Positions 4,001 to 47,767 of a DNA stretch of 47,767 nt are shown here, in pieces; the stretch's first letter is position 1, and each line of letters begins with the position of its first letter. Source of the stretch: Escherichia coli (lineage in GTDB: Bacteria; Pseudomonadota; Gammaproteobacteria; Enterobacterales; Enterobacteriaceae). The notes under the pieces were generated by a model, which was not told the DNA's origin, ran no database searches, and was given only the letters and a program-made list of their open reading frames with translations. The position numbers were made by a program, and so were the translations under genes. Location of the stretch: assembly GCA_024546615.1 (NCBI GenBank), contig GCA_024546615.1_5040.1; one strand, given 5' to 3'.

Positions 4001-4062
4001 GCTGTGCCACCTGTGATAATGTCGAAGTTAAAAAAAATCCCGACTTCCGCCGGGACATGTGG

Positions 4063-4629
4063 TTATGCTTTCCGATACCCCGCATCATACAGAATCTTAA
4101 CCGCACCGATTGACACGCCGGACAGCCGAACCATCTCATCAATCGCGCGTTCCGCTTCGGTGCGGAGTGGGCGCAGACGACCCGGTGCAAAACATGCAGA
4201 CCGTCCAGCACCTTTATCGTCCCAGTAAACGACCGCTACATCATTTCCGTCACTTGTGGTTTTATGTGCGATGACCTCAACAATTTCACCTTCCGCCGGA
4301 AGAATACCGTCGAAGTCAGTCTCTATGTCGTATGTACCAATGGTGAATTCCACATCAATACCAACCGGCGGCAAACCTGTTCCATCCCAGCCGACTGCCT
4401 CGTACTGTTCACGTGTGACAATTGCTGTTGCATGATTACACACCTGAGGTAAGTGACCAAGTAGCTTGTGACTTACGTGACTATCCATCCACTCATCATC
4501 TTCGTCTTTCTCCGGCTTATGGACGAAACCCCATACACTTCCTTCCTCTTCCTGTGCGATGAATTTAACACCCTCCGGCCAACCGCCACGCTTTGGTAAT
4601 TCCTGACGCAATAGTTCAAGTAATGTCAT
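4063..4629 (-). CDS. Acidic hypothetical protein (188 aa)
   Basis: About 34 D/E versus about 19 K/R; ATGA stop/start overlap with next gene; member of minus-strand operon driven by promoter at 5390-5418. Confidence 0.5.
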   Translation of the reverse strand: MTLLELLRQELPKRGGWPEGVKFIAQEEEGSVWGFVHKPEKDEDDEWMDSHVSHKLLGHLPQVCNHATAIVTREQYEAVGWDGTGLPPVGIDVEFTIGTYDIETDFDGILPAEGEIVEVIAHKTTSDGNDVAVVYWDDKGAGRSACFAPGRLRPLRTEAERAIDEMVRLSGVSIGAVKILYDAGYRKA

Positions 4630-5389: not shown

Positions 5390-5418
5390 ACTCTATACCA
5401 CACTGACGGAGTCGTCAA
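5390..5418 (-). promoter_or_regulatory. Sigma70-like promoter TTGACG-17-TAGAGT overlapping palindrome TGACGGAGTCGTCA
   Basis: -35 is rc of 5413-5418, -10 is rc of 5390-5395, spacer 17; drives minus-strand acidic gene operon. Confidence 0.55.
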
Positions 5419-7350: not shown

Positions 7351-7468
7351 CTCTCAAACCCTCTCTGCTGTTGATAAACTGAGTATACGTCATCCCTGAC
7401 GAACCCGTCAACATAAATATTTAACCCAAATCACAACGCCGACACAAAGTAGGAGGTAGTCCATAGTG

Positions 7469-8443: not shown

Positions 8444-9586
8444 ATGTGTTTAACGATTATCACTATGGCATACTCTGACGGACTCGTCAACATGCAAATC
8501 ACCGTAACACACAATGACCGTAAAAGTTTTGCACTGAACTCCCAACGTGTTTACACGGATGAGGGATTCCTGCGTGTGCCGGGTAAAGCCGCTCGTACCG
8601 GTATTCAGGAGTATCTTGCTTTGGAACTGGGACTAAAAGACCGCGCACCGAATGACATTATCCGTGTATACCGTCCCGCCGAAGAAGTGTTTAACGATGC
8701 GTCGCTTCAGAGCTATCTCGGCGCAGATGTCACGAATAACCATCCTCCCACATTTGTCAACGCTTCCACGTACCGTAATACCTCCGTTGGTGTTGTAACG
8801 AGTATCGGTCGTCAGGACGGCGATTTTGTCATTGTGGATATGGTCATTAAGGATAAAGACGCGATTAAGGCTGTCGAAACCGGTAAGTGTGAGTTGTCAG
8901 CCGGTTACACGGCGGTGTATGATGATACACCAGGGACAACGCCGGAAGGTGAACCGTATGACTTCCGACAGACCCAGATTAAAATTAACCACGTTGCAAT
9001 TGTTGACCGTGCTCGTGCGGGTGCAATGGCGCGTATCTTCGATAATATGGAGAAAAAACCCATGTATCAAATCACCACTGACACCGGGGTAAAAGTCGAT
9101 GTGGCGGATGCTGTGGTAGTAGACGCGTTCAAACGCTTAGAACAGCGTGTCAGTGACGCAGAAGCCGCCAAAGAAACCGTACAGGCTCAACTCGACGCAG
9201 CACTGGAACAGGTTGCCGACCTGACCACCAAATGCAGCGATGAAGCCCTGAAAGCACGCGTGGAAGCAATTGCACGTGTTACCACCTCAGCACGTAAAGT
9301 TGCTGGCGATGAATTCACCTGTGACAGCGTGGACCCGGTTGCAATCAAACGTGCCGCTCTTGCTGTTAAACGTCCGTCTGTTGACTGGGCTGACAAATCT
9401 GCCGCCTATGTTGAAGCCGCTTTCGATATGGCCGTGGAAGAACCAGTGAAACCTGTGGTAGACTCACAACTTGAGCAACTGGCTAAAGATGGTGCTAAAG
9501 ACATCAAACAGCCGGTAGCCGACGCAAAACCTGTACTGTCCCGCGCACAAGAAGCACTGCTGCGTCAGACTGGCAAACTTAAATAA
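8444..9586 (+). CDS. Putative prohead protease/scaffold (DUF2213-like N-domain plus coiled-coil C-domain)
   Basis: Position before decoration-like and capsid genes; Ala/Glu-rich helical C-terminal half; true start uncertain (ATG 8444, 8465 or 8492). Confidence 0.55.
   Translation: MCLTIITMAYSDGLVNMQITVTHNDRKSFALNSQRVYTDEGFLRVPGKAARTGIQEYLALELGLKDRAPNDIIRVYRPAEEVFNDASLQSYLGADVTNNHPPTFVNASTYRNTSVGVVTSIGRQDGDFVIVDMVIKDKDAIKAVETGKCELSAGYTAVYDDTPGTTPEGEPYDFRQTQIKINHVAIVDRARAGAMARIFDNMEKKPMYQITTDTGVKVDVADAVVVDAFKRLEQRVSDAEAAKETVQAQLDAALEQVADLTTKCSDEALKARVEAIARVTTSARKVAGDEFTCDSVDPVAIKRAALAVKRPSVDWADKSAAYVEAAFDMAVEEPVKPVVDSQLEQLAKDGAKDIKQPVADAKPVLSRAQEALLRQTGKLK
8462..8490 (-). promoter_or_regulatory. 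Sigma70-like promoter TTGACG-17-CATAGT overlapping palindrome TGACGGACTCGTCAA (8476-8490)
   Basis: Spacing read directly; faces minus-strand small-gene block. Confidence 0.5.
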
Positions 9587-11172: not shown

Positions 11173-11219
11173 GTCTCCTCTTGGGTTATAGTTACCACCG
11201 TCTTAAGAGGAGGAATTCC

Positions 11220-12800
11220 ATGTTCGTAGAAAGAGCAAAAAAAATACATAAAGGGAAATACGACTATTCCAAAGTGGAATATGTAAATAATAAAACACCC
11301 GTGACGATAGTTTGTCCGGTGCACGGTGATTTCGTTCAAATACCGCAGGGACACCTGAACTGCGAAATAGCGTGTCCAAAATGTAGAATCGACGATGTTT
11401 ATGACCGAATGATACAGCGGGCACGGGAGATTCATGGTGACAGATACTCATACGTCCGGGAATCATTCGTTTCCGTAGTCAAGAAAATGTCTATAATTTG
11501 TCCTGTACACGGGGTGTATCGGATGACACTGAACAACCATGTTCACAATGGTGCGGAATGTAAACCATGCGCACTGGCGAAACGTGGAGAATCACAACGG
11601 AAGACACTTGACAGTTTTGTGGAAGACGCGAAAAAAGTTCATGGTGACAGATACGATTATTCCAAAGTTATTTACGAGGGCAACAAAAAGAAAATAACCA
11701 TCACTTGTGCAAAACATGGTGACTTCAAACAGGAACCATATTCACATCTTTCGGGAAGAGGTTGTCCAAAATGCGGTCTCGAATCCAGAGCAAGCAAAAG
11801 TATGAGTACTCTTGAAAGATTCATTCACAAAAGCAGAGCTATACACGGTGACAAGTATGATTATTCTAAAGCGGTGTATAAAGGTAGTGACCAAAAACTA
11901 ACCATAATTTGTCCGGTGCACGGTGAATTTTCCCAATACGCAAATAACCACTCTACTCTTGGTCATCAATGCCCGACGTGTTCAAAAGCGGGTGTGTCCC
12001 GAGGTGAATTTGAAGTCTTCAACTTCGTCCGTTCCATCTGTCCCGATGCGGTACAATCCGACCGTACAACCATTGGACCGCTGGAACTTGATGTTGTAGT
12101 GCCGTCGCGCAATCTGGCAATTGAATTTAACGGTCTGTACTGGCACGATGAGCGCACGAAAGACAAGAAGTATCACATCGCCAAGCGTCACCGCGTGGAA
12201 GCCGCAGGATACCGTCTGATAAGTATCCGTGAGGATGTCTGGAATGAGCGCCGTGAGCAGGTAGAAAATATCATTCGCAACGCGCTCGGCGTGACATCCG
12301 ACAAAGTGTTTGCCCGTAAATGTGACATCGTGGAAGTTTCGACGTCTGAAGCGAAGGTATTCATGGAGAAACACCACGTGCAGGGTTTCCGGGGTGCGAC
12401 CGTTCATTATGGTTTGCAACATGATGACACCTTAGTTGCTGTGATCAGTCTGACAAACTGGCAGAAAAAGAACGAATGGGAACTGGTACGATATGCAACC
12501 GCGTGTAATGTCCCGGGTGGACTGTCCCGCTTGTGGAAACATGCTACCACGGTTAACAGCATCGTCCGCGCCTATTCATACGTTGACCGGGATTTGTTCA
12601 GCGGTTCCAGTTACGCTAATGCCGGTTTCATACTTTCAGCCACAACAGTAGGATTCAGGATCGTAAATGGTTGCACAACCGAATCGCGTGAGAAGTGGAA
12701 CCGCGCACCAGACGGAATGACACAGACGCAATGGTACGAATCAGAAGGTGTATCACGCATCTACGATTCTGGACAGGACAAGCTGTTATGGGTAAAATGA
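11220..12800 (+). CDS. Homing-endonuclease-like protein: four tandem zinc-ribbon modules, Vsr/DUF559-like nuclease core, unknown C-domain
   Basis: Four repeats of ...HGDxYDYSKV.Y...K.TI.CP.HG.F.Q.P..HL.G.GCPKCG; then ELDVVVP...LAIEFNGLYWHDE resembling Vsr FVDGCFWH motif; RBS AGGAGG; inserted after capsid terminator. Confidence 0.6.
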   Translation: MFVERAKKIHKGKYDYSKVEYVNNKTPVTIVCPVHGDFVQIPQGHLNCEIACPKCRIDDVYDRMIQRAREIHGDRYSYVRESFVSVVKKMSIICPVHGVYRMTLNNHVHNGAECKPCALAKRGESQRKTLDSFVEDAKKVHGDRYDYSKVIYEGNKKKITITCAKHGDFKQEPYSHLSGRGCPKCGLESRASKSMSTLERFIHKSRAIHGDKYDYSKAVYKGSDQKLTIICPVHGEFSQYANNHSTLGHQCPTCSKAGVSRGEFEVFNFVRSICPDAVQSDRTTIGPLELDVVVPSRNLAIEFNGLYWHDERTKDKKYHIAKRHRVEAAGYRLISIREDVWNERREQVENIIRNALGVTSDKVFARKCDIVEVSTSEAKVFMEKHHVQGFRGATVHYGLQHDDTLVAVISLTNWQKKNEWELVRYATACNVPGGLSRLWKHATTVNSIVRAYSYVDRDLFSGSSYANAGFILSATTVGFRIVNGCTTESREKWNRAPDGMTQTQWYESEGVSRIYDSGQDKLLWVK

Positions 12801-15186: not shown

Positions 15187-15215
15187 AGTATATCAGTGGC
15201 TGACGCATTCGTCAA
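15187..15215 (-). promoter_or_regulatory. Sigma70-like promoter TTGACG-17-TATACT overlapping palindrome CTGACGCATTCGTCAA (15200-15215)
   Basis: Spacing read directly; at left boundary of repeat copy A. Confidence 0.55.
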
Positions 15216-15510
15216 TACCTCATTTACCCCGAAATACCCGAGGCATCGGGGTGGCGAATTTACTTTCACAATCATAGGTTTACGCGCATAACCGAAAACC
15301 ACGTACATTCTTCCCCTCTTCCCTCTTATAAACCCTATAATATATACATTATGTATTATACTACATTTATACTATATATTATATACTCTCTATTACTACT
15401 AATTACTATTTTATAAGGGTATAAGGGTAATAAGTAATAAGTAACAGAAAACTAAAGAGTTTTTTATACCCCGATGACATACCCCGAACGAGTTTCAACG
15501 GGGTATGTGG
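15211..15510. repeat. Repeat copy A (~300 bp, about 93% identical to 47502-47767 plus 1-35): hairpins, AT-rich TATA-rich core, TAAGGGTA/ATAAGTA short direct repeats
   Basis: Direct by-eye alignment of the two copies; hairpin CCCCGA-N13-TCGGGG near 15228-15252 and ATACCCCG-N12-CGGGGTAT at 15479-15506. Confidence 0.85.
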
Positions 15511-18836: not shown

Positions 18837-18865
18837 ACTATAGCTCATCTTGACGAGTCCGTCAA
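18837..18865 (-). promoter_or_regulatory. Sigma70-like promoter TTGACG-17-TATAGT overlapping palindrome TTGACGAGTCCGTCAA (18850-18865)
   Basis: Spacing read directly; drives secreted moron gene. Confidence 0.55.
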
Positions 18866-23745: not shown

Positions 23746-23796
23746 TTGACGTGAGTGTCAATAGTATACTTGACATTATTTTCACAGGAGGGCGAC

Positions 23797-32100: not shown

Positions 32101-32314
32101 ACCACTCCGCAATTAGTACCGGATTAATCATATCTGCGCGGCGATTACCGGTATCGGCCCAATCACCTGTTTCTGATTTTTTAAAATAATTCAGAGCATT
32201 TTCTTTAGAACCCACAATTGATTTCACCAATGCAGTGTAACCCCCGACGCCATCGAAGAAAAAATAACAGATTACCCCATCGATTTTGTCCACTGCTTCA
32301 TAAGCTTGTTTCAT
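32099..32314 (-). CDS. Hypothetical protein (72 aa)
   Basis: RBS AGAGAGGG and ATG downstream of promoter 32347-32375; track ORF trimmed to MKQAYEA. Confidence 0.45.
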   Translation of the reverse strand: MKQAYEAVDKIDGVICYFFFDGVGGYTALVKSIVGSKENALNYFKKSETGDWADTGNRRADMINPVLIAEW

Positions 32315-32346: not shown

Positions 32347-32375
32347 ACTCTAAACTACTTTGACGCACTCGTCAA
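32347..32375 (-). promoter_or_regulatory. Sigma70-like promoter TTGACG-17-TAGAGT overlapping palindrome TTGACGCACTCGTCAA (32360-32375), embedded in 3' end of upstream gene
   Basis: Spacing read directly. Confidence 0.5.
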
Positions 32376-32948
32376 CGGTAAAACTAACTTTTCTGCTTCC
32401 TGAATGTACCAGTCGTAATTCAGTGCTCCCCAGTCGAAGTCTTTAGCGTCGGCACACTCTGTCACCTTCCATCCTGCACACATACTTGTTTCGCGCACTG
32501 CATCGTGCTTACTGCGACTCTTCGTGTGGATACGCTCGTCCCACGGTGTACCAATGCTGTCGAGGTCGCCCGGTTGACCTGTAATCTCACGCATTACCGC
32601 ATTGTACACATCGTCCTTGACACCATTCTTACGCTTCCATGTACCTGGTGTACCAGTGGGCGGTAACAGCTTGACCAGTGACCCACCGTTACGCGAGATA
32701 AATACACGTGTGGTATTCTGCATCTCCTGTTCAGCGCCCCACTCAGGCCAACGCATCACCAGACGTGCCGAACGAGGTACTTTGGCGCGCAGCATGAAGT
32801 CGAACGGGTCACGGTGCTGCGTGATGAACGTGCGGATGTCAGTGTCAAACAGAAGTGCGGCTTCAGCGGCGCGGGCAACAATCATCGCCGATGGGTCTTG
32901 ATGCCACTGGTATTTGTACTCGTAACACCCTTTTCTTTTAATTTTCAC
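32355..32948 (-). CDS. Hypothetical protein (197 aa) sharing GTPWDERIH motif with 37785-38834
   Basis: Motif DSIGTPWDERIHTKS versus DSTGTPWDERIHSTS in the 349-aa protein. Confidence 0.45.
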   Translation of the reverse strand: MKIKRKGCYEYKYQWHQDPSAMIVARAAEAALLFDTDIRTFITQHRDPFDFMLRAKVPRSARLVMRWPEWGAEQEMQNTTRVFISRNGGSLVKLLPPTGTPGTWKRKNGVKDDVYNAVMREITGQPGDLDSIGTPWDERIHTKSRSKHDAVRETSMCAGWKVTECADAKDFDWGALNYDWYIQEAEKLVLPLTSASK

Positions 32949-33828
32949 GGGTTGCCTCCAGCATTTCTAAAATTCGATTGTCCCATTTCAACCATTCGGT
33001 ACAACCATCAAAACCAGATAGTCCAGCATTAACGAAAGAAGAATGAGTTAGTTTTTCGATAAATTCCATTTTTCCACCTATGCCAGATAAAACTCGGAGT
33101 AACTGAAAATCAAATGGCGTACTTCTTTTCAATTTCCTCAAGCGATATTTATAATTATTGCTGATACCGACCTTCATATATTCCCCACCTTTGGAAGCAA
33201 GTACATAAAGGGAAGCCATCTGGTTACGTTTAAATCCACTCTTAGAACAGTCTTGACATCCTTGTCCACCGGATACGTGATCTATAGCCAATTTTTCAAA
33301 ACTACCGTGAACAGGGCAAATTATCTTTATTTTATGATGATTACCTTTATATTGAGATTCCGAATAATCATACTTATCCCCATGTACTGCGCGGGCTTTC
33401 TCAATCCATTCTTCGGTGTTATAAAGAGGAAGTCGTCCTTTTCCAGGACCTCCTGCGCATTTCGCGCACCCGTGGCCTTTTAGATGATTGCCGGCTAATT
33501 GGAGGAATTCCCCATGCTCTCGACAAATGATTATTATTTCTGAATGTCGTTTTTTATACTTAACCTTCGAATAATCATACTTATCTCCATGTACTGCACG
33601 GGCTTTCTCAATCCATTCTTCAGTGCTGGATTTTTTTGTCCCACCACAAACTGGGCAGCCGGAACCAGAACAGTGAGACGTGGGTTCTTGTCGGAAATCT
33701 CCATGCAATCGACAAACAATGGTCACTTTATGTTTTGAAGTACGATACTCGACCTTCGAATAATCATACTTATCTCCGTGTACCGCACGGGCTTTCTCAA
33801 TCCATTCTTCTGTGTTCAATCTTCTCAT
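32938..33828 (-). CDS. Homing-endonuclease-like protein: three tandem zinc-ribbon modules plus C-terminal T5orf172 (GIY-YIG-like) domain
   Basis: Three repeats of EEWIEKARAVHGDKYDYS...; C-terminal YVLASKGGEYMKVGISNNYKYRLRKL...GCTEWLKW; contains three ~55-bp DNA direct repeats. Confidence 0.6.
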   Translation of the reverse strand: MRRLNTEEWIEKARAVHGDKYDYSKVEYRTSKHKVTIVCRLHGDFRQEPTSHCSGSGCPVCGGTKKSSTEEWIEKARAVHGDKYDYSKVKYKKRHSEIIIICREHGEFLQLAGNHLKGHGCAKCAGGPGKGRLPLYNTEEWIEKARAVHGDKYDYSESQYKGNHHKIKIICPVHGSFEKLAIDHVSGGQGCQDCSKSGFKRNQMASLYVLASKGGEYMKVGISNNYKYRLRKLKRSTPFDFQLLRVLSGIGGKMEFIEKLTHSSFVNAGLSGFDGCTEWLKWDNRILEMLEATREN

Positions 33829-35348
33829 TCTATTACCATTATGTAATTATTCACATCTCGCTGATAGAGAGATTTCACAATATCAGTCTCCAGATTCAAC
33901 ATTGTTGTTTTTTCCCAAGACTTACATATGGATTCCACCAAAATTTCATATTTGTTTTCATAAAAAATGACGATTCCGTCAGTATTAGTTTGCGGTACGA
34001 TTAATCCGGGTACACGAGTTACAAGTTGGTCTACCAACATTGCCAAACAGAGTTGACCTGTAATAGTAATACTCAGGAGACACTTATGGTCACAAAATGG
34101 GCTAAATTTACTCCCCATGTTCCCAAATGTACCATTAAGAGCAAGTTTCAATGCCGCATCAACTGTTTTATCTCCCGCTCGTTTTGCATCACGACGACGA
34201 ATGAACAGTTGTTCATATACGTCGCAAAAAGTTTCACTAAGGTGTTCCGGATAGTACCTATTCTTTATACTAATGGAAGGGTACATACTTGTACAGTCTT
34301 TGTTTTGTAAATTGTGTGTTTGGGTAGAATGCACAACGTAGTTCGGAATACTACTGTGAATACCTCCCAATCCGAACGAATATTCGACACCATCAACTGT
34401 GACGGTCATATCACTAAACACACCTTTTGTGGTCAGTAATTCGTCCTGTTGTTTCTTCGTGAGTACAACCCCACGAATGCGTTCCAGAATTTGATTGAAC
34501 TCCGGTCGTTCGAATTTGATATAAGGGGGTATGCAATCTGCAAGTGCAATACGTTCACGAATGGTTACTCCGGAGCAATCTACCCCGGCCTTTTCCAGCT
34601 CGTGAACGAATATATCTTTGCCGATTTTAGTGTCGGCGTGGTTCATGAAGTTACGTCCGTATTGCTTTGTCAGTTCCTCACGGAAATGGATTTTGTCGAG
34701 TGAACGTACAAAGAATTTCAGCGTCTCTCGCACGTCGTGTTTGTTATATACGATGAGGATATCTTTCTGCGCATCGTTCAGCACCATTCCGACCGGGAAT
34801 GGCAGGTCTTTTACGTTGGGGGACTGCATGCCCACTTCCAACGCCTTCAGACTGGTGCGCCGGGCTTTATTATCAAAGTGATGAATTTTGTACAGGTCAA
34901 TCTGCTCGAAAATCTGGTCGCGGTCCCATACAATTTCGGGCCACTGACCTTCGGGTTTAATTTGTGATTGTGCTTTTGTGTAAATCTGTTCCAGTGTACA
35001 GCCTGGTGTATTGACCACGTAGTGCAACACCGGATAGTCGAATGCCAGGTTATTAAATCCAATCCCACGGGCCTTACTACATCCCAGGTTGAACACAAAT
35101 TCGATTAATTGCGGTTGCTCGTTTTTGCGGTCACTAATCTCGAAGATTAACTCCATACCCGTCGCAGCGTGAATAAATGAGGCAGTGAAGATATTCGGAT
35201 ACGTCTCGATGTCCCATCCCCAGTCCCGCGGGTCCAGTGGTGCAACGCTGGAGAACGCCGAATCAGCCCCACAGTGAGGGCAATTGTGGAGGTCAGCGGG
35301 ATAATTTTTACCGCAAGTTGCATCCTCGCATTTTGATAAATAGTGCAT
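33825..35348 (-). CDS. Compact family-B DNA polymerase with 3'-5' exonuclease motifs and N-terminal zinc finger
   Basis: Exo I WDIETY, Exo II FNNLAFDYPVL, Exo III YNKHDVRE; motif A DCTSMYPSI, motif B KLALNGTFG, motif C TNTDG; N-terminal C-x4-C-x11-C-x2-C. Confidence 0.7.
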   Translation of the reverse strand: MHYLSKCEDATCGKNYPADLHNCPHCGADSAFSSVAPLDPRDWGWDIETYPNIFTASFIHAATGMELIFEISDRKNEQPQLIEFVFNLGCSKARGIGFNNLAFDYPVLHYVVNTPGCTLEQIYTKAQSQIKPEGQWPEIVWDRDQIFEQIDLYKIHHFDNKARRTSLKALEVGMQSPNVKDLPFPVGMVLNDAQKDILIVYNKHDVRETLKFFVRSLDKIHFREELTKQYGRNFMNHADTKIGKDIFVHELEKAGVDCSGVTIRERIALADCIPPYIKFERPEFNQILERIRGVVLTKKQQDELLTTKGVFSDMTVTVDGVEYSFGLGGIHSSIPNYVVHSTQTHNLQNKDCTSMYPSISIKNRYYPEHLSETFCDVYEQLFIRRRDAKRAGDKTVDAALKLALNGTFGNMGSKFSPFCDHKCLLSITITGQLCLAMLVDQLVTRVPGLIVPQTNTDGIVIFYENKYEILVESICKSWEKTTMLNLETDIVKSLYQRDVNNYIMVIE

Positions 35349-36442: not shown

Positions 36443-36471
36443 ATACTACGTTAGTTTGACGAGTGCGTCAA
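36443..36471 (-). promoter_or_regulatory. Sigma70-like promoter TTGACG-17-TAGTAT overlapping palindrome TTGACGAGTGCGTCAA (36456-36471); 5'-UTR hairpin GGGAGAC/GTCTCCC at 36414-36432
   Basis: Spacing and hairpin read directly. Confidence 0.5.
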
Positions 36472-38868: not shown

Positions 38869-38897
38869 ACTCTATATCACCATGACGCAGCCGTCAA
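38869..38897 (-). promoter_or_regulatory. Sigma70-like promoter TTGACG-17-TAGAGT overlapping palindrome ATGACGCAGCCGTCAA (38882-38897)
   Basis: Spacing read directly. Confidence 0.5.
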
Positions 38898-38911: not shown

Positions 38912-38954
38912 TTGACACGGGGTGGGTGGTGCGACATAATGACGCCATCGTCAA
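38912..38954 (+). promoter_or_regulatory. Sigma70-like promoter TTGACA-17-CATAAT with palindrome ATGACGCCATCGTCAA (38939-38954) overlapping -10/+1
   Basis: Near-consensus hexamers; palindrome in operator-like position. Confidence 0.55.
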
Positions 38955-38974: not shown

Positions 38975-39151
38975 ATGAGCCAAATTAAACGCAAAGTAAC
39001 ACATCGTGTTTGCCCTTTATGTGGGTATGTAATGACTCAACTGGAAATAGACAGACTTCGTTTTCCGGTTGAGTGCCCCAGATGTGGCGAACACAACACA
39101 AACGAGTTTCAACCTCTCAAATGGGAGTCCGACAACAGTGACACAAATTAA
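38975..39151 (+). CDS. Small zinc-ribbon protein (58 aa, C-x2-C ... C-x2-C)
   Basis: RBS GAAGGAG; VCPLCG and ECPRCG pairs; below track cutoff. Confidence 0.45.
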   Translation: MSQIKRKVTHRVCPLCGYVMTQLEIDRLRFPVECPRCGEHNTNEFQPLKWESDNSDTN

Positions 39152-39298: not shown

Positions 39299-40957
39299 GT
39301 GGGAGATGTGATGCAACTGCGCCCATATCAGTCCAGTCTTGTGACTGGGATCAATAATTATTGGTCAACAAACCCACGGGGTAAAGTGCTGGCGGTGCTT
39401 GCGACAGGTGGTGGGAAGACTGTTATTTTCTCATCTATTATCGCTGCCGAACAAGGTGCGACATGTGCCATTGCACACCGCCAGGAACTCGTCAGTCAGA
39501 TGAGTCTCACGCTTGCCAAAAACGGTATCTATCACCGCATTGTCGGTTCGAATAAAACCGTGAAAAACTGTGTGAAGATTCACATGGATGAATTAGGTAA
39601 GACATTTTACGACGCTGGAAGTAAACACGCGGTCGCCAGTGTGGACACAATCATCCGGCGTGGCGAGCAACTTGCCAACTGGTTACCGTCTGTTCGTCTG
39701 TGGGTTATCGATGAGGCACACCATGTACTTAAAGATAACAAATGGGGCAAAGCCGTGCAGATGTTCCCCAATGCTCGCGGGCTGGGGGTTACAGCTACAC
39801 CGTGTCGTGCGGATGGTAACGGTCTGGGAAGTCATGCAGATGGCGTGTTTGATACTATGTTCGAAGGCGTGGCAATGGGGGAACTCATACGAGATGGGTA
39901 TCTGACCGATTACAAAATTTTCGCACCTCCCAGTAGTTTCTCACGTGAACAAATTAAGGTGAGCGAGTCCACGGGGGATTTCAACCTGAACCAGATGAGG
40001 GAGGTCGTTAACGGCTCATCACTGGTGACACACGATGAGAAAACCATCACCGGTGATGTTGTTGCTCAATATCTGAAAATTGCCCGTGGTAAATCCGGCG
40101 TGACATTCACTGTCGACGTGGCGAGCGCTGAGGAAATCGCGGAACAGTATAATAAAGCAGGTGTCCCGGCAGCGGCAATAAGCTGTAACACTCCTGACCT
40201 TGAACGATTCGCAGCGGTGCGAAAATTTAAAAATAAAGAGATATTACAATTAGTTAACTCCGAGATTCTGACCGAGGGCTTCGATTGTCCCGGCATTGAG
40301 GTTGTTTCATTCGGTCGTCCAACCGAATCGTACAGTATGTATAGTCAAATGTTTGGCCGCGCCCTCAGACCATTACCAGGTAAAACCCACGCAATTATTA
40401 TTGACCATGTGGGTAACGTCATGCGCCACGGTTTACCGGATGCACCGCGTGAGTGGAGTCTTGACCGTCGGGAGCGTCGCACGGGTAAAAGTGAACCATC
40501 TACGGTGCGTGTGTGTACAGCTTGCGCGGCAGTGTATGAGCGGTTCCGTGACGCGTGTCCTGACTGTGGCGAACCTGTGCCAAAACCGGCGCAACGTAGT
40601 GGTCCCGAATTCGTAGACGGTGACCTGTACGAGCTTGACCCGGACGTACTGGCGCAGATGCGTAACGAGGTTGTGGGAGCACGTGAGACACCCGAGGCAA
40701 TGCGTGACAGACTGACTGGTCGCTACATGCCACAAGCTGGTGTCATAAGTGAGGTACGAAAACAAATAAAACGTCTTGACGCGCTCGTCAAACTGGACCA
40801 TACTCTTGCTCAGTGGGCCGGTTATCGCCGTGCGGAAGGTCTGAGCGACAGCGAAATATTTCGTAAATTTTACCTGACGTATGGTGTGTCATGGCTGGAG
40901 GCGCAGGCGCTCAAAGCGGCTGATGCGGATAAATTACGGGAGAGGATTGGATTGTGA
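39299..40957 (+). CDS. SF2 DEAD/DEAH-box helicase
   Basis: Walker A LATGGGKT, motif II VIDEAHH; RBS GGGAGA. Confidence 0.75.
   Translation: MGDVMQLRPYQSSLVTGINNYWSTNPRGKVLAVLATGGGKTVIFSSIIAAEQGATCAIAHRQELVSQMSLTLAKNGIYHRIVGSNKTVKNCVKIHMDELGKTFYDAGSKHAVASVDTIIRRGEQLANWLPSVRLWVIDEAHHVLKDNKWGKAVQMFPNARGLGVTATPCRADGNGLGSHADGVFDTMFEGVAMGELIRDGYLTDYKIFAPPSSFSREQIKVSESTGDFNLNQMREVVNGSSLVTHDEKTITGDVVAQYLKIARGKSGVTFTVDVASAEEIAEQYNKAGVPAAAISCNTPDLERFAAVRKFKNKEILQLVNSEILTEGFDCPGIEVVSFGRPTESYSMYSQMFGRALRPLPGKTHAIIIDHVGNVMRHGLPDAPREWSLDRRERRTGKSEPSTVRVCTACAAVYERFRDACPDCGEPVPKPAQRSGPEFVDGDLYELDPDVLAQMRNEVVGARETPEAMRDRLTGRYMPQAGVISEVRKQIKRLDALVKLDHTLAQWAGYRRAEGLSDSEIFRKFYLTYGVSWLEAQALKAADADKLRERIGL
40776..40804 (+). 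promoter_or_regulatory. Internal promoter TTGACG-17-CATACT with palindrome TTGACGCGCTCGTCAA inside helicase 3' coding region
   Basis: Spacing read directly. Confidence 0.4.
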
Positions 40958-41631: not shown

Positions 41632-41660
41632 TTGACCACTCCGTCAACCTGTGCCATACT
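41632..41660 (+). promoter_or_regulatory. Sigma70-like promoter TTGACC-17-CATACT overlapping palindrome TTGACCACTCCGTCAA (41632-41647)
   Basis: Spacing read directly. Confidence 0.5.
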
Positions 41661-41689: not shown

Positions 41690-41968
41690 ATGAGCAAAGA
41701 ATACATTTTAGAAGTAGCTTACACAATGGCGCAGCGCGACGGCTTTGGCACTCTTACCCGCGACGGCGTTGCGGCTGAGGCTGGCGTGGCGATGGGTTCA
41801 GTTAACCATCACTGGGTCAGGATGTCCGCACTTCGTGAAGCAGTGATGCAACGGGCAGTGGAAGAAGAAAACCTCGAATTGATTGGACAGGGAATGGCGC
41901 TGGGTGATAGCGTTGCCAAATCCGCACCACTGGAGCTACGCACCCGCGCACTGACCACCCTGCTTTAA
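41690..41968 (+). CDS. Small HTH protein, TetR-like N-terminal fold (candidate transcriptional regulator)
   Basis: TLTRDGVAAEAGVAMGSVNHHW resembles TetR-family HTH; track ORF trimmed to MSKEY start. Confidence 0.45.
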   Translation: MSKEYILEVAYTMAQRDGFGTLTRDGVAAEAGVAMGSVNHHWVRMSALREAVMQRAVEEENLELIGQGMALGDSVAKSAPLELRTRALTTLL

Positions 41969-41990: not shown

Positions 41991-44348
41991 ATGACACATA
42001 TGAATCCCCCTGTGCAGGGGGCTGATTCCCTGCACTTTATCGTCTGCAAAACAGTACCTTCACAGAAGAAGCCGGGACGTACGGAGAAGATGCCATGTAA
42101 CGCTGCCGGTGATGTGGTCAGTCTGCACGTTGCGGACCGGATGTCTCACGCTCAGGCAGTTGCGGCGGCTTCCGCACTGGGTGAGTCATATCGTCCCGCG
42201 GTTATTCTTACGGGTGACGGACGTTTCTGCGTGGATATCGACGGCGCACTGCAGGACGACAACACCTGGTCGCCGCTTGCGCTGGAGTTATGCACCACTT
42301 TTGCCGGTTGTTACGTGGAAGTGAGCAACAGCGGTAAAGGCTTGCACATTTTTGGTTACAGCCCGTCCATCCCCGAACATGCCTGTAAAAATATTCCACT
42401 ACACATTGAACTGTACACCTCTGACCGTTTTATCTGCCTGGGGAGCAACGCACGAGGTGACATGATGTTCAACGCATCTGCGCCGCTCAACGCCACGGTT
42501 GCACGTTATTTCCCGCAGACCGAACAAGTTGCGGCGGTGGAGTGGACAACGACTCACGCTGAAGGTTCGTGTCCGATTGAGGATGATGTGAAACTCATCG
42601 AAAAAGCCTGTTCCAGTAAAGGCGGTGTCGCGGCTGTTTTCGGTGGTAAAGCAACATTCAAAGACCTGTGGACGCGCAACGTTGAGGTACTGAGTGATGC
42701 GTATCCGGATGAGGACCGTGAATATGACGGGTCAAGCGCTGATGCAGCATTAGCCCAGCATCTGGCGTTCTGGTGCGGCGGTAACTGTCAACGTATTGAG
42801 CGTCTGATGCGTCTCAGTGCCCTTGTCAGACCAAAATGGGACAGCCATAAGAGTTACCTTCAACGCACCATCCTGGGCGCTTGCGCACGTCAGACGACTT
42901 ATTACAGCGTCGGTGCACCAATTGAACTGGTAACTCCCGCGCAGGTTGTCGAGACGGGTGCGCCGGTTATCCGCAGTGGGTATCAGTTCATTGGAGGCTC
43001 ACAGCTTGTTGACCACTTCAAAGGCTGCGTGTATGTGGCAGACAGTCACCGCATTCTCACACCTAACGGTCAGATGCTGAAGTCCGAGCAGTTTAACGCG
43101 ATGTACGGTGGTTATGTGTTTGCACTGGATGACGGTAACGAAAAGACCACCAAAAAGGCTTTTGAAGCGTTCACCGAGAATCAGTGCATCATGTTCCCGA
43201 AGGTTGATCGCTCGACATTTCGTCCGGATTTGCCACAGGGTGCAATCATTGAGGAGGATGGTCTGCGTCACGTCAATACGTACATACCGGTGACGGTGGC
43301 GAGCGCCCCCGGCGATGTGACACCTTTCCTCACTCATCTGGCCAAACTGTTACCCGTCGAGCGCGACCGTGACATTCTGTTGTCCTACATGGCAGCGTGT
43401 GTACAGTACAAGGGTGTAAAATTTAAATGGGCACCATTGTTACAGGGTGTTGAAGGTAACGGTAAAACACTGTTCACACTGTGCGTAATGGAAGCGGTCG
43501 GGTCACGTTACAGCCACATGCCGCCAGCGCAGGAAATTGGTGAGAAGTTCAACGCCTGGTTGTTCGATAAAATATTTATCGGCGTGGAGGATATTTATGT
43601 CCCGGAGCAAAAACTCGAACTGATTGAGACGCTCAAGCCGATGATTACCGGCGAGTACCTCGCCAAGCGTGCGATGCAACAGGACCAGGTAATGCACCGC
43701 CTGTGTGCTAACTTCATGTTTAACAGTAACCACAAGAACGCCGTGCGCAAGACCGCTAATGACCGCCGGTTCGCCATTTTCTACACCGCGCAGCAGGAGC
43801 ATATGGACATTGTGCGCGATGGTATGGGTGGCGACTACTTCCCCAACCTGTATGACTGGCTCAAACGTGGCGGTGGATTTGCAGCCGTAACGCATTATCT
43901 GGAGAACTACGCCATTCCCACACAACTTAACCCGGCGACACATTGTCAGCGTGCCCCGGAAACAAGTAGTACCCACGAGGCTGTGACAGCATCACTCGGC
44001 AGTGTCGAGCAGGAAATTATGGAAGCAATCGACGAGGGTCGCACGGGCTTCGCGGGGGGCTGGGTGAGTAGTAAAGCACTGGATAATCTGTTACGCCAGA
44101 TGCGCGCTGACCGCGCTGTGCCGGTGGGTAAACGTCGCGACATGATGCGCCAACTGGGTTACGACTGGCACCCGGCGCTTAAAGACGGGCGTGTGAATAA
44201 CGTAATAATGATTGATGGTGGTAAACCGCGTCTCTACATCAAGATTGGACATATTCATGCTAACCTCACAAATGCGGCGGACGTGGCGCGCCATTACGCA
44301 GCAGCACAGGGTGATACAAGTGCGTTAGCCTTTGCAGAAACTAAATAA
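41991..44348 (+). CDS. Primase-helicase (P4 alpha/D5-like, SF3 helicase C-domain)
   Basis: 785 aa; Walker A GVEGNGKT, Walker B FIGVEDIYV; N-terminal primase-like domain; RBS AGAGAGACAGAG. Confidence 0.7.
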   Translation: MTHMNPPVQGADSLHFIVCKTVPSQKKPGRTEKMPCNAAGDVVSLHVADRMSHAQAVAAASALGESYRPAVILTGDGRFCVDIDGALQDDNTWSPLALELCTTFAGCYVEVSNSGKGLHIFGYSPSIPEHACKNIPLHIELYTSDRFICLGSNARGDMMFNASAPLNATVARYFPQTEQVAAVEWTTTHAEGSCPIEDDVKLIEKACSSKGGVAAVFGGKATFKDLWTRNVEVLSDAYPDEDREYDGSSADAALAQHLAFWCGGNCQRIERLMRLSALVRPKWDSHKSYLQRTILGACARQTTYYSVGAPIELVTPAQVVETGAPVIRSGYQFIGGSQLVDHFKGCVYVADSHRILTPNGQMLKSEQFNAMYGGYVFALDDGNEKTTKKAFEAFTENQCIMFPKVDRSTFRPDLPQGAIIEEDGLRHVNTYIPVTVASAPGDVTPFLTHLAKLLPVERDRDILLSYMAACVQYKGVKFKWAPLLQGVEGNGKTLFTLCVMEAVGSRYSHMPPAQEIGEKFNAWLFDKIFIGVEDIYVPEQKLELIETLKPMITGEYLAKRAMQQDQVMHRLCANFMFNSNHKNAVRKTANDRRFAIFYTAQQEHMDIVRDGMGGDYFPNLYDWLKRGGGFAAVTHYLENYAIPTQLNPATHCQRAPETSSTHEAVTASLGSVEQEIMEAIDEGRTGFAGGWVSSKALDNLLRQMRADRAVPVGKRRDMMRQLGYDWHPALKDGRVNNVIMIDGGKPRLYIKIGHIHANLTNAADVARHYAAAQGDTSALAFAETK

Positions 44349-44370
44349 GCCCTTCGGGGCTTTTTTTTTT
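44347..44370 (+). terminator. Intrinsic terminator GCCC-TTCG-GGGC plus T10
   Basis: Read directly. Confidence 0.75.
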
Positions 44371-44380
44371 GCAATTAGTA

Positions 44381-44409
44381 TTGACGGACTCGTCAATAGG
44401 GCGTATATT
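44381..44409 (+). promoter_or_regulatory. Near-consensus sigma70 promoter TTGACG-17-TATATT with palindrome TTGACGGACTCGTCAA (44381-44396)
   Basis: Read directly; preceded by conserved GCAATTAGT. Confidence 0.65.
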
Positions 44410-44458
44410 TAATCACATGAAAGGCGGAACTGTTCCACCCCACGGGGAGAATAAGAAA

Positions 44459-44584
44459 ATGAATTATCAACCACTCAAAAATAAATGTCGTGCTGCGGTC
44501 ATTCGAAAAGCATGGCGTGACGCACCAGAAGGAAAAGCCAAAGTGGCAATGCTTACTTGGGCGGACAAGTTGTGGAATAGTTGA
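44459..44584 (+). CDS. Small basic protein (41 aa)
   Basis: RBS GGGGAGA 8 nt before ATG; flanked by promoter and terminator. Confidence 0.35.
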   Translation: MNYQPLKNKCRAAVIRKAWRDAPEGKAKVAMLTWADKLWNS

Positions 44585-44590
44585 CAATGA

Positions 44591-44616
44591 CAGCCCCTGA
44601 ATGGGGCTTTTTTTTT
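44591..44616 (+). terminator. Intrinsic terminator AGCCCC-TGAAT-GGGGCT plus T9
   Basis: Read directly. Confidence 0.75.
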
Positions 44617-44626
44617 GCAATTAGTG

Positions 44627-44655
44627 TTGACGAGTCCGTCAAGGTAGGTTATCTT
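44627..44655 (+). promoter_or_regulatory. Sigma70-like promoter TTGACG-17-TATCTT with palindrome TTGACGAGTCCGTCAA (44627-44642)
   Basis: Read directly; same GCAATTAGT upstream context as 44381. Confidence 0.6.
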
Positions 44656-44689
44656 TAACTCATCGGAACAACAACAGAGAGGAATACAA

Positions 44690-44881
44690 ATGCGTAAGTT
44701 TCAAAAGAAGACGATAAAAGAATTTCAAATGTTTCTTGAAGAGATGGGACTTTCTATTTACGGCCCACACATGGTCGGAAATACACAATATCACGGGTGT
44801 ATGGATTACTCAGCGGAAGAAATCGTTAAACGTAGAAAGTTATTTGATAAAAACCAGATTGATATCTCAGAGGATTACTAA
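44690..44881 (+). CDS. Hypothetical protein (63 aa)
   Basis: RBS AGAGGAA. Confidence 0.45.
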   Translation: MRKFQKKTIKEFQMFLEEMGLSIYGPHMVGNTQYHGCMDYSAEEIVKRRKLFDKNQIDISEDY

Positions 44882-44885
44882 CCAA

Positions 44886-45059
44886 ATGAAAAACATTATC
44901 AGTCATCACAAACTATCTGACATGTTGGGTAATATGACCGAGGTTCAGGCACTGACCATGCTGTCACGTATGCGTACACAGGCTGACCGGGAAGGGCTAT
45001 GTGTCACTCGTCTCATTGTTGGAGGTAAGGTACGGGAGATGTGGATATGGAAACACTAA
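44886..45059 (+). CDS. Hypothetical protein (57 aa)
   Basis: First ATG of track ORF 44736-45059 after upstream stop; weak RBS. Confidence 0.3.
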   Translation: MKNIISHHKLSDMLGNMTEVQALTMLSRMRTQADREGLCVTRLIVGGKVREMWIWKH

Positions 45060-45262: not shown

Positions 45263-45555
45263 TTAAATATTTACCACTTGTAGCGCTCCTGGTGGGCGCT
45301 CAGGCTCACGCGGGTGTGATTGCAGTGAGTGATGAAGCACAGGTCGCTAACATGCTCTTTAACGGATGCAGCGCTCAACGTGCACAAATGGGCGTGCAGG
45401 AAATTATTAAACAGGCTAACCCGGGCGATAATCCTGCGGTGACTGACCTTATCATTAAAGGTTACAAGTTCGGCATTGATTACCCGAATGTCGGATGCAA
45501 CCAGTTCTTTACAGTTGTTATCGACCAGTTAGTTAACGCCAGGAGCAAAGCGTAA
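45259..45555 (+). CDS. Secreted/periplasmic protein with signal peptide (98 aa)
   Basis: MIKYLPLVALLVGAQAHA then GVIAV...; two Cys. Confidence 0.5.
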   Translation: MIKYLPLVALLVGAQAHAGVIAVSDEAQVANMLFNGCSAQRAQMGVQEIIKQANPGDNPAVTDLIIKGYKFGIDYPNVGCNQFFTVVIDQLVNARSKA

Positions 45556-45656
45556 TGACTATTCTGACGGAAGAGAAATTACTGGCCGATGTGAGTGCGG
45601 GGATGAGTGGTCACGCCATTGCGAGAAAGTATGGTATGACCCCCCGGCAATATTAA
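45555..45656 (+). CDS. HTH-containing N-terminal segment (33 codons) ending at stop just after a C6 tract; likely 5' part of the downstream gene
   Basis: RBS AGGAG; ...AGMSGHAIARKYGMTP then stop; the +1 frame continues as GNINRRIKRLGARGL... into the 45706 ORF. Confidence 0.4.
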   Translation: MTILTEEKLLADVSAGMSGHAIARKYGMTPRQY

Positions 45657-45705
45657 CCGCCGCATCAAACGTCTCGGTGCGCGCGGTCTTGGTCACGGTG
45701 GTGAT

Positions 45706-46680
45706 GTGTCCCGCTTTGTGCCGGACGGTTACAAGGTAAAAGGTACATCGTCACTAGTGAAGGAGGATGGGACTGTAGCGCTGCAATGGGTTAAAACCGA
45801 TGTGGACGCCGAGCGCCAGTTGAAAATGATGCAGGAAGCGATTGCGGCGCTTACAGCGGATATTAAGCCGGTTAAATTACCCGGGTTTACCGGACACCCC
45901 ACCTCGGAGAATCTTTGTAACCTGTACACTGTAAGTGATTTTCATCTGGGGATGCTGGCGTGCCTGGAAGAGTCCGGTGAGGACTGGGATATCAAAATAG
46001 CGGAGGACATGTTTGTTAAGTGGTTCAGCGCTGCCGTTGAGATATCACCGTGGTCACATACAGCCGTAGTGTCACTACTGGGCGACCTGATGCACAGTGA
46101 CTCGCTGGCCCCGGTAACTCCGGCGAGTGGGCATGTGCTGGATGCAGACAGCCGGTATTTTAAAATGATCCAGGTAACAATGCGAATGGTGCGCCGGGCG
46201 ATTGAAATTGTCGCGCTGAAACACCCGCAGGTGCACATCGTTGTATCACAAGGTAACCACGACGAGACAGGTATGTTATGGCTCACCAGCGCGCTTGAGA
46301 TGATGTACGGACACGATGACCGTGTGACTGTGGACACATCGCCGGACGTGTTCAAAATGTTCCGCCACGGCGACACGGTACTCTTTTTCCACCATGGTCA
46401 CAAGGTGCGATTTGCCAGCATTGAGCCGGTAATGATTTCCCGGTTCCGCCGCGACTATGGTGAGACAAGTTACGCATACGCCCACGTGGGTCATCTGCAT
46501 CACCAGAAAATTGTCGAGAGTAATTGTATGGTGGTCGAACAACACCGCACGCTGGCGGCTAAAGATGCGTATGCGGCCCGGGGAGGATGGTTCAGTGGGC
46601 GCAGCGCCAATGTCATTACATATCACAAGCAATACGGTGAAGTCAGTCGTCAGTCAATCAGTCCGGAGATGTTGAAATGA
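45706..46680 (+). CDS. Calcineurin-like metallophosphoesterase
   Basis: Motifs DFHLG, LLGDLMHSD, GNHDE, FHHGH, GHLHH; track start is GTG; reading frame is open upstream to 45640. Confidence 0.6.
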   Translation: MSRFVPDGYKVKGTSSLVKEDGTVALQWVKTDVDAERQLKMMQEAIAALTADIKPVKLPGFTGHPTSENLCNLYTVSDFHLGMLACLEESGEDWDIKIAEDMFVKWFSAAVEISPWSHTAVVSLLGDLMHSDSLAPVTPASGHVLDADSRYFKMIQVTMRMVRRAIEIVALKHPQVHIVVSQGNHDETGMLWLTSALEMMYGHDDRVTVDTSPDVFKMFRHGDTVLFFHHGHKVRFASIEPVMISRFRRDYGETSYAYAHVGHLHHQKIVESNCMVVEQHRTLAAKDAYAARGGWFSGRSANVITYHKQYGEVSRQSISPEMLK

Positions 46681-47506: not shown

Positions 47507-47767
47507 TACCTCATTTTACCCCGAAATACCCGAGGCATCGGGGTAGCGAATTTACTTTCACAATCAGCAGCTTACGCGCATAACCGAAAACCCCGTACAT
47601 TCCTCCCCTCTTCCCTCTTATAAACCCTATAATATATACATTATGTATTATACTACATTTATACTATATATTATATACTCTCTATTACTACTAATTACTA
47701 TTTATTAGGGGTATAGGGGTAATAAGTAGTATAGTACTGAAAGGTAAAGAGTTTTTTATACCCCGAT
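47502..47767. repeat. Repeat copy B (continues into 1-35), about 93% identical to 15211-15510
   Basis: Direct alignment by eye; same hairpins and AT-rich core as copy A. Confidence 0.85.

Follow-up and report, generated by a model that had tools for sequence, protein, structure and literature searches.

A PeSL-like terminator-promoter cassette with a putative genome-wide operator behind the primase gene of a Jedunavirus genome

Introduction

The locus presented here is a pair of units, each a predicted terminator abutting a predicted promoter, which frame a 41-codon gene behind the primase gene in contig GCA_024546615.1_5040.1 (47,767 nt, the whole of which we call the window). Judging by anatomy and comparative pattern, the closest described system is the PeSL (promoter-early stem-loop) cassettes of T4-like phages, which were treated by Arbiol et al. 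in 2010 (PMC2839356) and Comeau et al. in 2014 (PMC4122927). Passages on these cassettes describe a stem-loop terminator joined to a strong early promoter, flanking ORFans in hyperplastic regions and recombining, which yields indels and mini-circles (PMC2839356, PMC4122927). A second type to compare are the morons of lambdoid phages (the concept of Hendrix and Juhala), whose boundaries, according to the passage that treats them, are not thought to be conserved sequences mediating mobility (PMC2839356). The only comparative paper on the wider group to which the present phage belongs notes a tetR-like gene and never promoters or terminators, and the temperate behaviour of Vibrio phage CP-T1 stays unexplained there (PMC3391216). 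Our search of the literature on Jedunavirus, JD001 and KpV52 promoters and on phage TetR repressors found no prior description.

The locus shares with PeSLs a compact GC-rich stem-loop terminator, an AT-rich stretch and a strong sigma70-type early promoter in one intergenic element, and this element flanks small ORFans that differ between close relatives in a region of variable length (94-1615 bp, 12 relatives empty and 23 with cargo). The composite would be a plausible homology patch for insertion and excision, which at the same time supplies expression and insulation. It differs from PeSLs in its lineage, a 48-kb JD001-like myovirus and not a T4-like phage, in having one or two composites per genome instead of many (the promoter core is present in ~13 copies), in the embedded 16-bp palindrome, a putative operator with no counterpart in those passages on PeSLs, and in that most cargo at this locus has no second composite. 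As in a moron, one gene that brings along a promoter and a terminator lies between genes that are adjacent in JD001; unlike in morons, it is bounded by copies of a conserved regulatory module of the phage and is also found at a second locus beside such a module. Repressors with dispersed operators are known from phage P1, where operators of C1 are scattered over the genome, and Cro of phage lambda turns down early promoters. In a similar way one small phage DNA-binding protein could here run many scattered promoters through an operator overlapping their core elements, with the difference that the candidate is a 92-aa TetR-type helix-turn-helix protein and that the putative operator is fused to the -35 hexamer in fixed register. 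On sequence evidence the cassette is best described as PeSL-like or moron-like and as built from a phage-wide promoter-operator module. Our reading as a whole, i.e. a self-contained cassette in a variable post-primase locus, with operator-bearing promoters, control by the small TetR-type protein and an origin by recombination, we consider probable, with ample room for doubt.

Results and Discussion

The terminator-promoter units

By megablast the region falls within Jedunavirus, the genus of JD001-like Klebsiella and Escherichia myophages with genomes of about 48 kb. Escherichia phage ZCEC13 and Klebsiella phage 1611E-K2-1 are the nearest records, at ~91-92% identity across the alignable parts. 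The window is probably a complete Jedunavirus genome of ~47.8 kb, because its ends join up (47515-47767 plus 1-35 repeats 15223-15510, as reported by a repeat finder). The elements from the primase gene onward are:

41991-44348, plus strand: primase/DUF5906 gene, 785 aa (Pfam NrS1-1_pol-like_HBD and DUF5906; PHROG 1829, DNA primase)
44347-44409, plus strand: unit 1, made up of hairpin, T10, linker, palindrome and -10
44347-44370, plus strand: predicted terminator 1, AAGCCC-UUCG-GGGCUU at 44347-44362 with T10 at 44361-44370 (pattern scan, folding)
44371-44380, plus strand: linker 1, GCAATTAGTA, AT-rich, with the core GCAATTAGT at 44371-44379, conserved behind the primase gene in phages ranging from those of Klebsiella to Pantoea phage AAM22
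44381-44396, unstranded: unit-1 palindrome TTGACGGACTCGTCAA, i.e. the -35 hexamer (44381-44386) and the mirrored half-site in the spacer; putative operator
44404-44409, plus strand: -10 of predicted promoter 1, TATATT, 17 bp past TTGACG (10/12 match to consensus)
44410-44458, plus strand: leader type B, aatcacatgaaaggcgg, with the hairpin GGCGGAA-CUG-UUCCACC at 44423-44439 and a Shine-Dalgarno sequence at 44444-44449; the same in metagenomic contigs L070-L074, similar in Salmonella phage 9NA
44459-44584, plus strand: 41-codon cargo gene (MNYQPLKNKCRAAVIRKAWRDAPEGKAKVAMLTWADKLWNS)
44592-44655, plus strand: unit 2, made up of hairpin, T9, linker, palindrome and -10
44592-44616, plus strand: predicted terminator 2, AGCCCC-UGAAU-GGGGCU at 44592-44608 with T9 at 44608-44616 (pattern scan, folding)
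44617-44626, plus strand: linker 2, GCAATTAGTG, with the core GCAATTAGT at 44617-44625 (read from the sequence)
44627-44642, unstranded: unit-2 palindrome TTGACGAGTCCGTCAA, i.e. -35 hexamer and putative operator
44650-44655, plus strand: -10 of predicted promoter 2, TATCTT, 17 bp past the -35 (TTGACG-17-TATCTT, 9/12 match to consensus)
44656-44689, plus strand: leader type A, taactCATCGGAACAACAACAGAGAGGaatacaa, CA-rich, with a Shine-Dalgarno sequence; common to several palindromic promoters and identical in the single unit of JD001
44690-44881, plus strand: 63-aa second cargo gene with no promoter of its own (PHROG 35106), between leader A and the 57-aa gene, absent in JD001
44886-45059, plus strand: 57-aa gene (MKNIISHHKLSD..., protein MKNII...; PHROG 23856), the right-hand anchor, present in 35 relatives

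Every element of the two terminator-promoter pairs in the original prediction was confirmed in the sequence, and a scan for consensus patterns recovered the two terminators and the two promoters on its own. Each hairpin is GC-rich and directly followed by a U-tract (6-bp stems with four and five GC pairs, 10 and 9 U), and folding gave -10.7 kcal/mol (z = -2.2) for terminator 1 and -12.0 kcal/mol (z = -2.8) for terminator 2 in relation to shuffled sequences. The 5' arm of the first hairpin overlaps the primase stop codon (44346-44348), and this post-primase hairpin is the same in most relatives, while in L034 and L035, both PEAT2-like loci, the primase operon closes with a near-twin of the second, AGCCCCTAAATGGGGCT. 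In both units the promoter hexamers face a gene at a distance from one another within the 17 +/- 1 bp of sigma70-type promoters, and a Shine-Dalgarno sequence with ATG follows at 50 and 35 nt, respectively. These features support the interpretation of each unit as an intrinsic terminator abutting a sigma70-type promoter. The T-tract and linker 1 occupy about -55 to -36 of promoter 1 and are possibly an UP element or a recombination patch.

The two units had been called near-identical, which calls for some qualification. Their 16-mers are exact reverse complements (TTGACGGACTCGTCAA and TTGACGAGTCCGTCAA), and the repeat finder lists them as a direct repeat (D5, 246-bp spacing) with 75% identity over 56 nt, or ~82% over a 40-nt core by manual count. 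The hairpins, -10 hexamers and leaders differ, and the sequence from the -10 onward is unrelated. We also considered the linker core GCAATTAGT as a motif in its own right and ruled it out, since alone it is not enriched in the window (10 matches, 11.4 expected) and its other copies, e.g. at 32109, have no unit context.

The 41-codon gene and its leader

The small open reading frame (ORF), which had been noted for its good ribosome-binding site, proved to be a real conserved gene. A GGGGAG Shine-Dalgarno sequence (44444-44449) stands 9 nt before its ATG, and the protein has homologues at 74-98% identity, found in only 8 clusters among 5.8 billion proteins. Among deposited phages, tblastn detected the gene in Bas81, gmqsjt-1, Salmonella phage 9NA (gp36), EcoPhCCP1 and FENT2 and in no other deposited Jedunavirus; some of the homologues are in 9NA-like siphoviruses. 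Pfam, PHROG and NCBIfam gave no match for the 41-aa protein. It may, as originally proposed, be the product of an insulated and highly expressed early gene. A longer in-frame ORF from the ATG at 44417 was ruled out, as this ATG is ~8 nt past the -10 and, in the homologues of 9NA and Bas81, is either missing or in another frame, and the minus-strand ORF 44393-44620 (75 aa) was taken as spurious.

The 9NA and Bas81 homologues are each preceded by a separate promoter, TTGACG-17-TATAGT or TAGTAT, which does not contain the palindrome, and their leaders have a hairpin in the corresponding position. Leaders of type B (aatcacatgaagggcgg...) were compared in the window, L070-L074, L004 (Bas81), L005 (9NA), L009:45474 and L051:3884. 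In single-sequence folds every homologue possesses a hairpin of 5-8 bp ~13-32 nt past the -10, with differing stem sequences, which may stabilize the 5' end of the mRNA. RNAalifold returned a consensus energy of ~0 for these leaders, the MAFFT alignment having mis-registered the hairpins.

Variability of the post-primase locus and a second locus

The interval between the primase stop codon and the 57-aa gene ranges from 94 to 1615 bp in the 35 relatives with both anchors; it is empty (94-97 bp) in 12 of them and holds cargo of many lengths in the other 23. JD001 has no cargo at this site: one terminator-promoter unit, nearly the same as unit 2 of the window including the leader, follows its primase gene and runs directly into the 57-aa gene. 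One unit each and a different small gene are found in 1611E-K2-1 and ZCEC13, and two units around other cargo in LPKP33 and the IMG/VR locus L016, while in more distant relatives a second unit is often 1-2.8 kb downstream. In relation to JD001 the window carries two insertions, a 246-bp module (promoter, leader, 41-aa gene and terminator) and the promoterless 63-aa gene, and the sequence between its units has no counterpart in single-unit relatives. Pfam, PHROG and NCBIfam gave no function for the 63-aa and 57-aa proteins, and they do not reproduce the label of the ZCEC13 cargo in its record, 'anticodon nuclease activator'. In the PEAT2-like locus L035 (3963-5188) genes for a 155-aa membrane-like and a 262-aa protein stand directly after the primase gene with no terminator between, followed by a unit; this two-gene insertion is a further, larger type of cargo at the same hot spot.

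A copy of the 41-aa protein with 98% identity (P0001) is found in the metagenomic contigs L070-L074. Their flanks align to the minus-strand replication region of the window with up to 96% nucleotide identity (88-96% in L071, the others with more divergent patches), and a segment matching window 44365-44582 at 85-88% identity is situated between the equivalents of window positions 37785 and 37599, where the window itself has an unrelated 60-aa gene. Upstream this cassette has a hairpin, T-run, AT-rich linker and TTGACGGACTCGTCAA, and downstream a terminator of its own. This indicates that promoter, leader and gene are a module present at two loci of closely related genomes.

A search for the unit in related genomes, which had been proposed as a check, yielded a catalogue of 61 units of hairpin, T-run, linker and palindrome, in which the types of hairpin, linker, N4, -10 and leader are combined mosaically. 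The hairpin TCCCGGCGGAAGTCGGGA, for instance, is seen in L072 at the other locus, in unit 2 of LPKP33 and of L016, and in the window at 4029-4063. These 35 nt are 97% identical to the TCCCGGCGGAAGTCGGGA terminator hairpin region preceding the L072 cassette, which shows that terminator hairpins are common to unrelated loci. The idea of a mobile regulatory cassette has thus gained good comparative support from the variability of the locus and from the second locus, with the restriction that the segment shared is promoter, leader and gene (44365-44582), the hairpins being different.

These results could also be explained by an ordinary moron, acquired from a 9NA-like phage in one illegitimate insertion, in which case the units would resemble each other as early promoters do and would not be vehicles of mobility. 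The promoter and leader hairpin which the 9NA and Bas81 homologues possess without the palindrome, the majority of cargo without a second unit and the differing hairpins of the two units are all in accordance with such an origin. However, the window copy has the full Jedunavirus-type palindrome and linker and not the 9NA spacer, the module at the second locus in close relatives is again joined to hairpin, T-run, linker and palindrome, and parts of the module are shuffled among loci and phages, which makes this explanation unlikely, though deserving of attention.

A palindrome in promoters throughout the genome

The palindrome had been presented as part of the cassette. It is indeed present in both units, but it is not specific to them, being found at ~13 promoters genome-wide. 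TTGACG-N4-CGTCAA with at most one mismatch occurs 14 times in the window, with 0.18 expected, and none of 100 shuffles reached 14. When all 5-mer palindromes with spacers of 0-10 bp were counted de novo, TGACG-N4-CGTCA came first with 13 copies and the next unrelated palindrome had 2. It is also the top palindrome in ZCEC13, JD001 and Pantoea phage AAM22 (10 copies in each), and in CP-T1 the top one is TTGAC-N6-GTCAA (6 copies). A -10-like hexamer (at least 4/6) is situated 17-18 bp past the TTGAC -35 at 12 of the 14 sites, facing downstream genes. In an alignment of 13 sites TTGAC and the CGTCA of the spacer are invariant (2 bits per position) and N4 is nearly free, and a Shine-Dalgarno sequence with ATG is within ~25-60 nt at 11 of them. 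Downstream of the palindromic promoters are replication genes and groups of small ORFs instead of the long structural operons. Besides the two in the units, the sites found by the motif scan are:

5403-5418, minus strand: palindromic promoter TTGACGACTCCGTCAG, -10 TAGAGT
7396-7411, minus strand: palindromic promoter TTGACGGGTTCGTCAG, -10 TATACT at 18 bp
8475-8490, minus strand: palindromic promoter TTGACGAGTCCGTCAG, -10 CATAGT
15200-15215, minus strand: palindromic promoter TTGACGAATGCGTCAG, -10 TATACT
18850-18865, minus strand: palindromic promoter TTGACGGACTCGTCAA, -10 TATAGT
23746-23761, minus strand: palindromic site TTGACACTCACGTCAA with a weak -10, AATTAT, and no start codon within ~57 nt
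32360-32375, minus strand: palindromic promoter TTGACGAGTGCGTCAA, -10 TAGAGT
36456-36471, minus strand: palindromic promoter TTGACGCACTCGTCAA, -10 TAGTAT
38882-38897, minus strand: palindromic promoter TTGACGGCTGCGTCAT, -10 TAGAGT, with AATTAGTA upstream as in the units
38939-38954, unstranded: palindrome ATGACGCCATCGTCAA across the -10/start site of a separate plus-strand promoter, an operator position and not a -35; kept in ZCEC13
40776-40791, plus strand: palindromic promoter TTGACGCGCTCGTCAA, -10 CATACT, in the 3' end of the helicase gene, with orthologous sites in ZCEC13, AAM22 and CP-T1
41632-41660, plus strand: promoter of the small TetR-type gene and the primase gene, with the variant palindrome TTGACCACTCCGTCAA (41632-41647) and -10 CATACT

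The promoter under the palindrome at 38939-38954 is on the plus strand (TTGACA at 38912-38917, 17 bp, CATAAT at 38935-38940). This palindrome is outside the -35 register, which indicates that the motif can be uncoupled from the role of a -35. In the part of the spacer at -25 to -21 RNA polymerase does not depend on particular bases, and an exact mirror of the -35 hexamer there therefore points to a two-fold symmetric binding protein. TTGACG-N4-CGTCAA is most likely a conserved genome-wide operator embedded in ~13 promoters.

A small TetR-type protein as the candidate binder

41690-41968, plus strand: gene of a 92-aa TetR_N helix-turn-helix protein, here called mini-TetR (Pfam TetR_N PF00440, 27.4 bits, cutoff 24)

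The gene is located directly downstream of the palindromic promoter at 41632-41660 and directly upstream of the primase gene. Its product has the N-terminal helix-turn-helix of the TetR family; nearly all of the 29 PDB sequence matches (phmmer), the top ones included, are helix-turn-helix regions of this family, aligned to residues 3-67, and the NCBIfam TetR models match this region only and far below their cutoffs. Homologues form 138 clusters; those in the 120 listed measure 92-93 aa throughout, and the longer contigs are mostly ~48 kb. A tblastn search detected mini-TetR in all Jedunaviruses, and related phages of Pantoea, Shewanella, Vibrio (CP-T1, 138), Edwardsiella and Alteromonas have it at 28-52% identity; each genome that carries the motif encodes the protein. 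Five whole genomes with mini-TetR have 9-17 TGAC-N6-GTCA sites each, whereas Yersinia phage PY100 and Aeromonas phage 56, which do not have the protein, have 1-2. In 42 of 59 IMG/VR loci mini-TetR and the motif occur together, and the exact motif is absent from the only full-length loci without mini-TetR, L065 and L066. In L040 (IMGVR_UViG_3300034069_000566) the helix-turn-helix is strongly diverged (23% identity) and the palindrome is altered to TTGAC(T/A)CATGAGTCA, twice (TTGACTCATGAGTCAA and TTGACACATGAGTCAG), possibly a case of protein and operator changing together. In the window, ZCEC13, JD001 and AAM22 alike, the left half-site of the mini-TetR promoter reads TTGACC and not TTGACG; such a variant is compatible with a separately tuned autoregulation and might give this promoter a different threshold of repression. 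Mini-TetR is the best candidate for, and likely to be, the protein that binds the palindrome and represses from it.

Escherichia coli RutR, a member of the TetR family, binds the 16-bp palindrome TTGACCAnnTGGTCAA (PMC2475637), the outer bases of which are those of the phage motif. The likeness includes the identical outer TTGAC-N6-GTCAA and, on the side of RutR, binding by a TetR-family dimer. The key positions 4 and 13 match, and positions 6 and 11 do not; by manual count typical window sites agree with ~10 of the 14 specified positions and the 41632 site with 12. The inner bases are G...C in the phage sites and CA...TG in RutR, and the proteins themselves differ, RutR being ~200 aa with a ligand domain and mini-TetR a minimal helix-turn-helix with no specific similarity beyond the family.

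It is improbable, in our estimate, that the palindrome is not the mini-TetR operator and is instead bound by a host factor such as RutR or by another phage protein, or simply tunes the strength of sigma70 promoters. The outer bases shared with TTGACCAnnTGGTCAA and the 12/14 agreement at 41632 would suit RutR, the link from mini-TetR to the sites is indirect, and the proteome scan covers 25 of the 41 Pfam families, with a further DNA-binding protein perhaps among the remainder. On the other hand, conservation of the motif among Klebsiella, Pantoea and Vibrio phages speaks for a partner encoded by the phage, positions 6 and 11 of the typical site are G and C where the RutR consensus has C and G, the needs of sigma70 do not explain five invariant spacer bases that mirror the -35, and one site (38939) is away from any -35.

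A local tandem duplication without significance, in which the 41-codon ORF would be a chance spacer frame, would fit a direct repeat with 246-bp spacing, but this very improbable explanation is effectively refuted by the conservation of the ORF as a protein in several unrelated phages and at another locus, by the differing hairpins, -10 hexamers and leaders, and by between-unit sequence that single-unit relatives do not have.

A model of the cassette

The anatomy of the units, the genome-wide motif and its conservation, the variable length of the locus and the presence of the cassette at two loci rest on sequence and comparison; the activity of promoters and terminators, the identity and action of the repressor, the role as UP element and the route of recombination are inferred. 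From these results we propose that the transcript running from the helicase to the primase gene would end at terminator 1 (UUCG loop, U10). Host sigma70 RNA polymerase would then initiate at TTGACG-17-TATATT, possibly with the T-tract and linker (GCAATTAGT) of promoter 1 helping as an UP element between about -55 and -36. The short monocistronic transcript would consist of a leader, with its 5' hairpin, and the 41-codon gene and would be stopped by terminator 2, after which promoter 2 would restart transcription into the 63-aa cargo gene and the conserved genes downstream. Both promoters belong to the set of ~13 in which the -35 is also the left half of TTGACG-N4-CGTCA(A/G), with the mirrored half in the spacer. 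A dimeric protein on this palindrome would occlude -35 and spacer and so repress the set of early genes together, repression being expected because the site covers both. Accumulation of mini-TetR would in this manner shut off both cassette promoters along with other early promoters, and mini-TetR, itself transcribed from a palindromic promoter, would be autoregulated. The cassette was probably born by recombination, where the stretch of terminator, T-tract, linker and palindrome could provide homology for insertion and excision as in PeSL cassettes.

Several points weigh against this model. Promoters in the survey of 35 relatives were counted by their palindromes, and two of them stand at the locus in only three, the window included; a duplicated unit framing its cargo, as originally described, is thus seen here, while most cargo at the hot spot is behind a single unit. 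Since most cargo, the 63-aa gene included, was inserted without a second unit, recombination from unit to unit is not the sole route of insertion. The composite of terminator and promoter is present twice in the window and once or twice in each relative, whereas RB49 has many PeSLs. Identity between the cassette and the copies at the other locus is only 85-88% while the flanks reach 96%, which means that no recent transfer has been captured. As for mini-TetR, only ~40 residues follow its helix-turn-helix, in place of the C-terminal helical core of ~150 aa by which TetR-family proteins dimerize and bind ligand, and its AlphaFold model (pLDDT 75, with the turn of the helix-turn-helix below 50) is too weak to support a fold or a dimer. 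phiPLPE has a distant TetR-like homologue but only one palindrome. The co-occurrence of mini-TetR and motif is confounded by shared ancestry, the phages without both having an entirely different replication module. Finally, the literature searched yielded no transcript, footprint or binding data for any Jedunavirus.

If the palindrome is the operator of mini-TetR, this group of phages runs most of its early transcription through one small repressor, and a gene acquired together with an operator-bearing promoter, or inserted behind one, would have the right timing from the start. The model is testable in a genus widely isolated for Klebsiella phage therapy, and it would extend the PeSL idea of regulatory cassettes as recombination linkers beyond T4-like phages. 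The post-primase locus is a place to seek host-specific accessory or anti-defence genes, and the 16-mer with the 92-aa protein could serve as a compact synthetic repressor/operator pair.

By analogy with C1 of P1 one can go further and imagine that mini-TetR and its ~13 dispersed operators form a decentralized genome-wide repression circuit, which could hold a silent carrier or pseudolysogenic state. This is speculative and we would not expect it to be so, yet if true, the circuit would explain the temperate behaviour of CP-T1 without known lysogeny genes, a puzzle in the comparative study of the group (PMC3391216). Jedunaviruses, which are treated as strictly lytic candidates for therapy, would then carry a latent immunity-like switch, and new genes would join the circuit automatically on arrival with an operator-bearing promoter or through recombination at one.

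Other features of the window

Searches of the whole window with Rfam (gathering thresholds) and a tRNA scan gave zero matches, and the proteome scan showed DUF723 and DUF4379 zinc-finger matches with two members each, counted for the proteome and not assigned to individual ORFs. The AT-rich repeat of ~288 bp by which the ends of the window join (15223-15510 and 47515-47767 plus 1-35) has copies that are 92-97% identical, with a partial third copy at 39091-39113. It holds an iteron-like run (TATAAGGGTATAAGGGTAATAAGTAATAAGTAAC) and a terminal hairpin, GACATACCCCGAACGAGTTT(T/C)AACGGGGTATGTGG, and both full copies are directly upstream of plus-strand structural operons (terS; neck/tail genes), which makes it a candidate for a late-promoter, origin or pac region. 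It may be the counterpart of the 'extended repeat sequences' noted in phiPLPE, CP-T1 and 138 (PMC3391216).

Two genes seem to be interrupted. The exonuclease gene (PHROG 704) appears split into a 33-aa ORF with helix-turn-helix-like sequence (45555-45656) and a 324-aa ORF (45706-46680), separated by a 49-nt gap (45657-45705), while the ZCEC13 counterpart is a single 'winged helix-turn-helix domain' gene of 380 aa. A frameshift, a pseudogene or a sequencing error could account for the split. The DNA polymerase region on the minus strand (32355-35348) consists of three ORFs of 197, 296 and 507 aa, the middle one with three 79-nt direct repeats (33349-33823). The polymerase gene is single in ZCEC13 (2115 bp) and also interrupted in JD001, which suggests that an element such as an intein, intron or homing endonuclease has been inserted. 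The major capsid gene is followed by a 539-aa ORF (11181-12800) with internal DNA repeats (D4, D6 and D18 of the repeat finder), the ortholog of which is labelled 'endonuclease-like protein' in ZCEC13.

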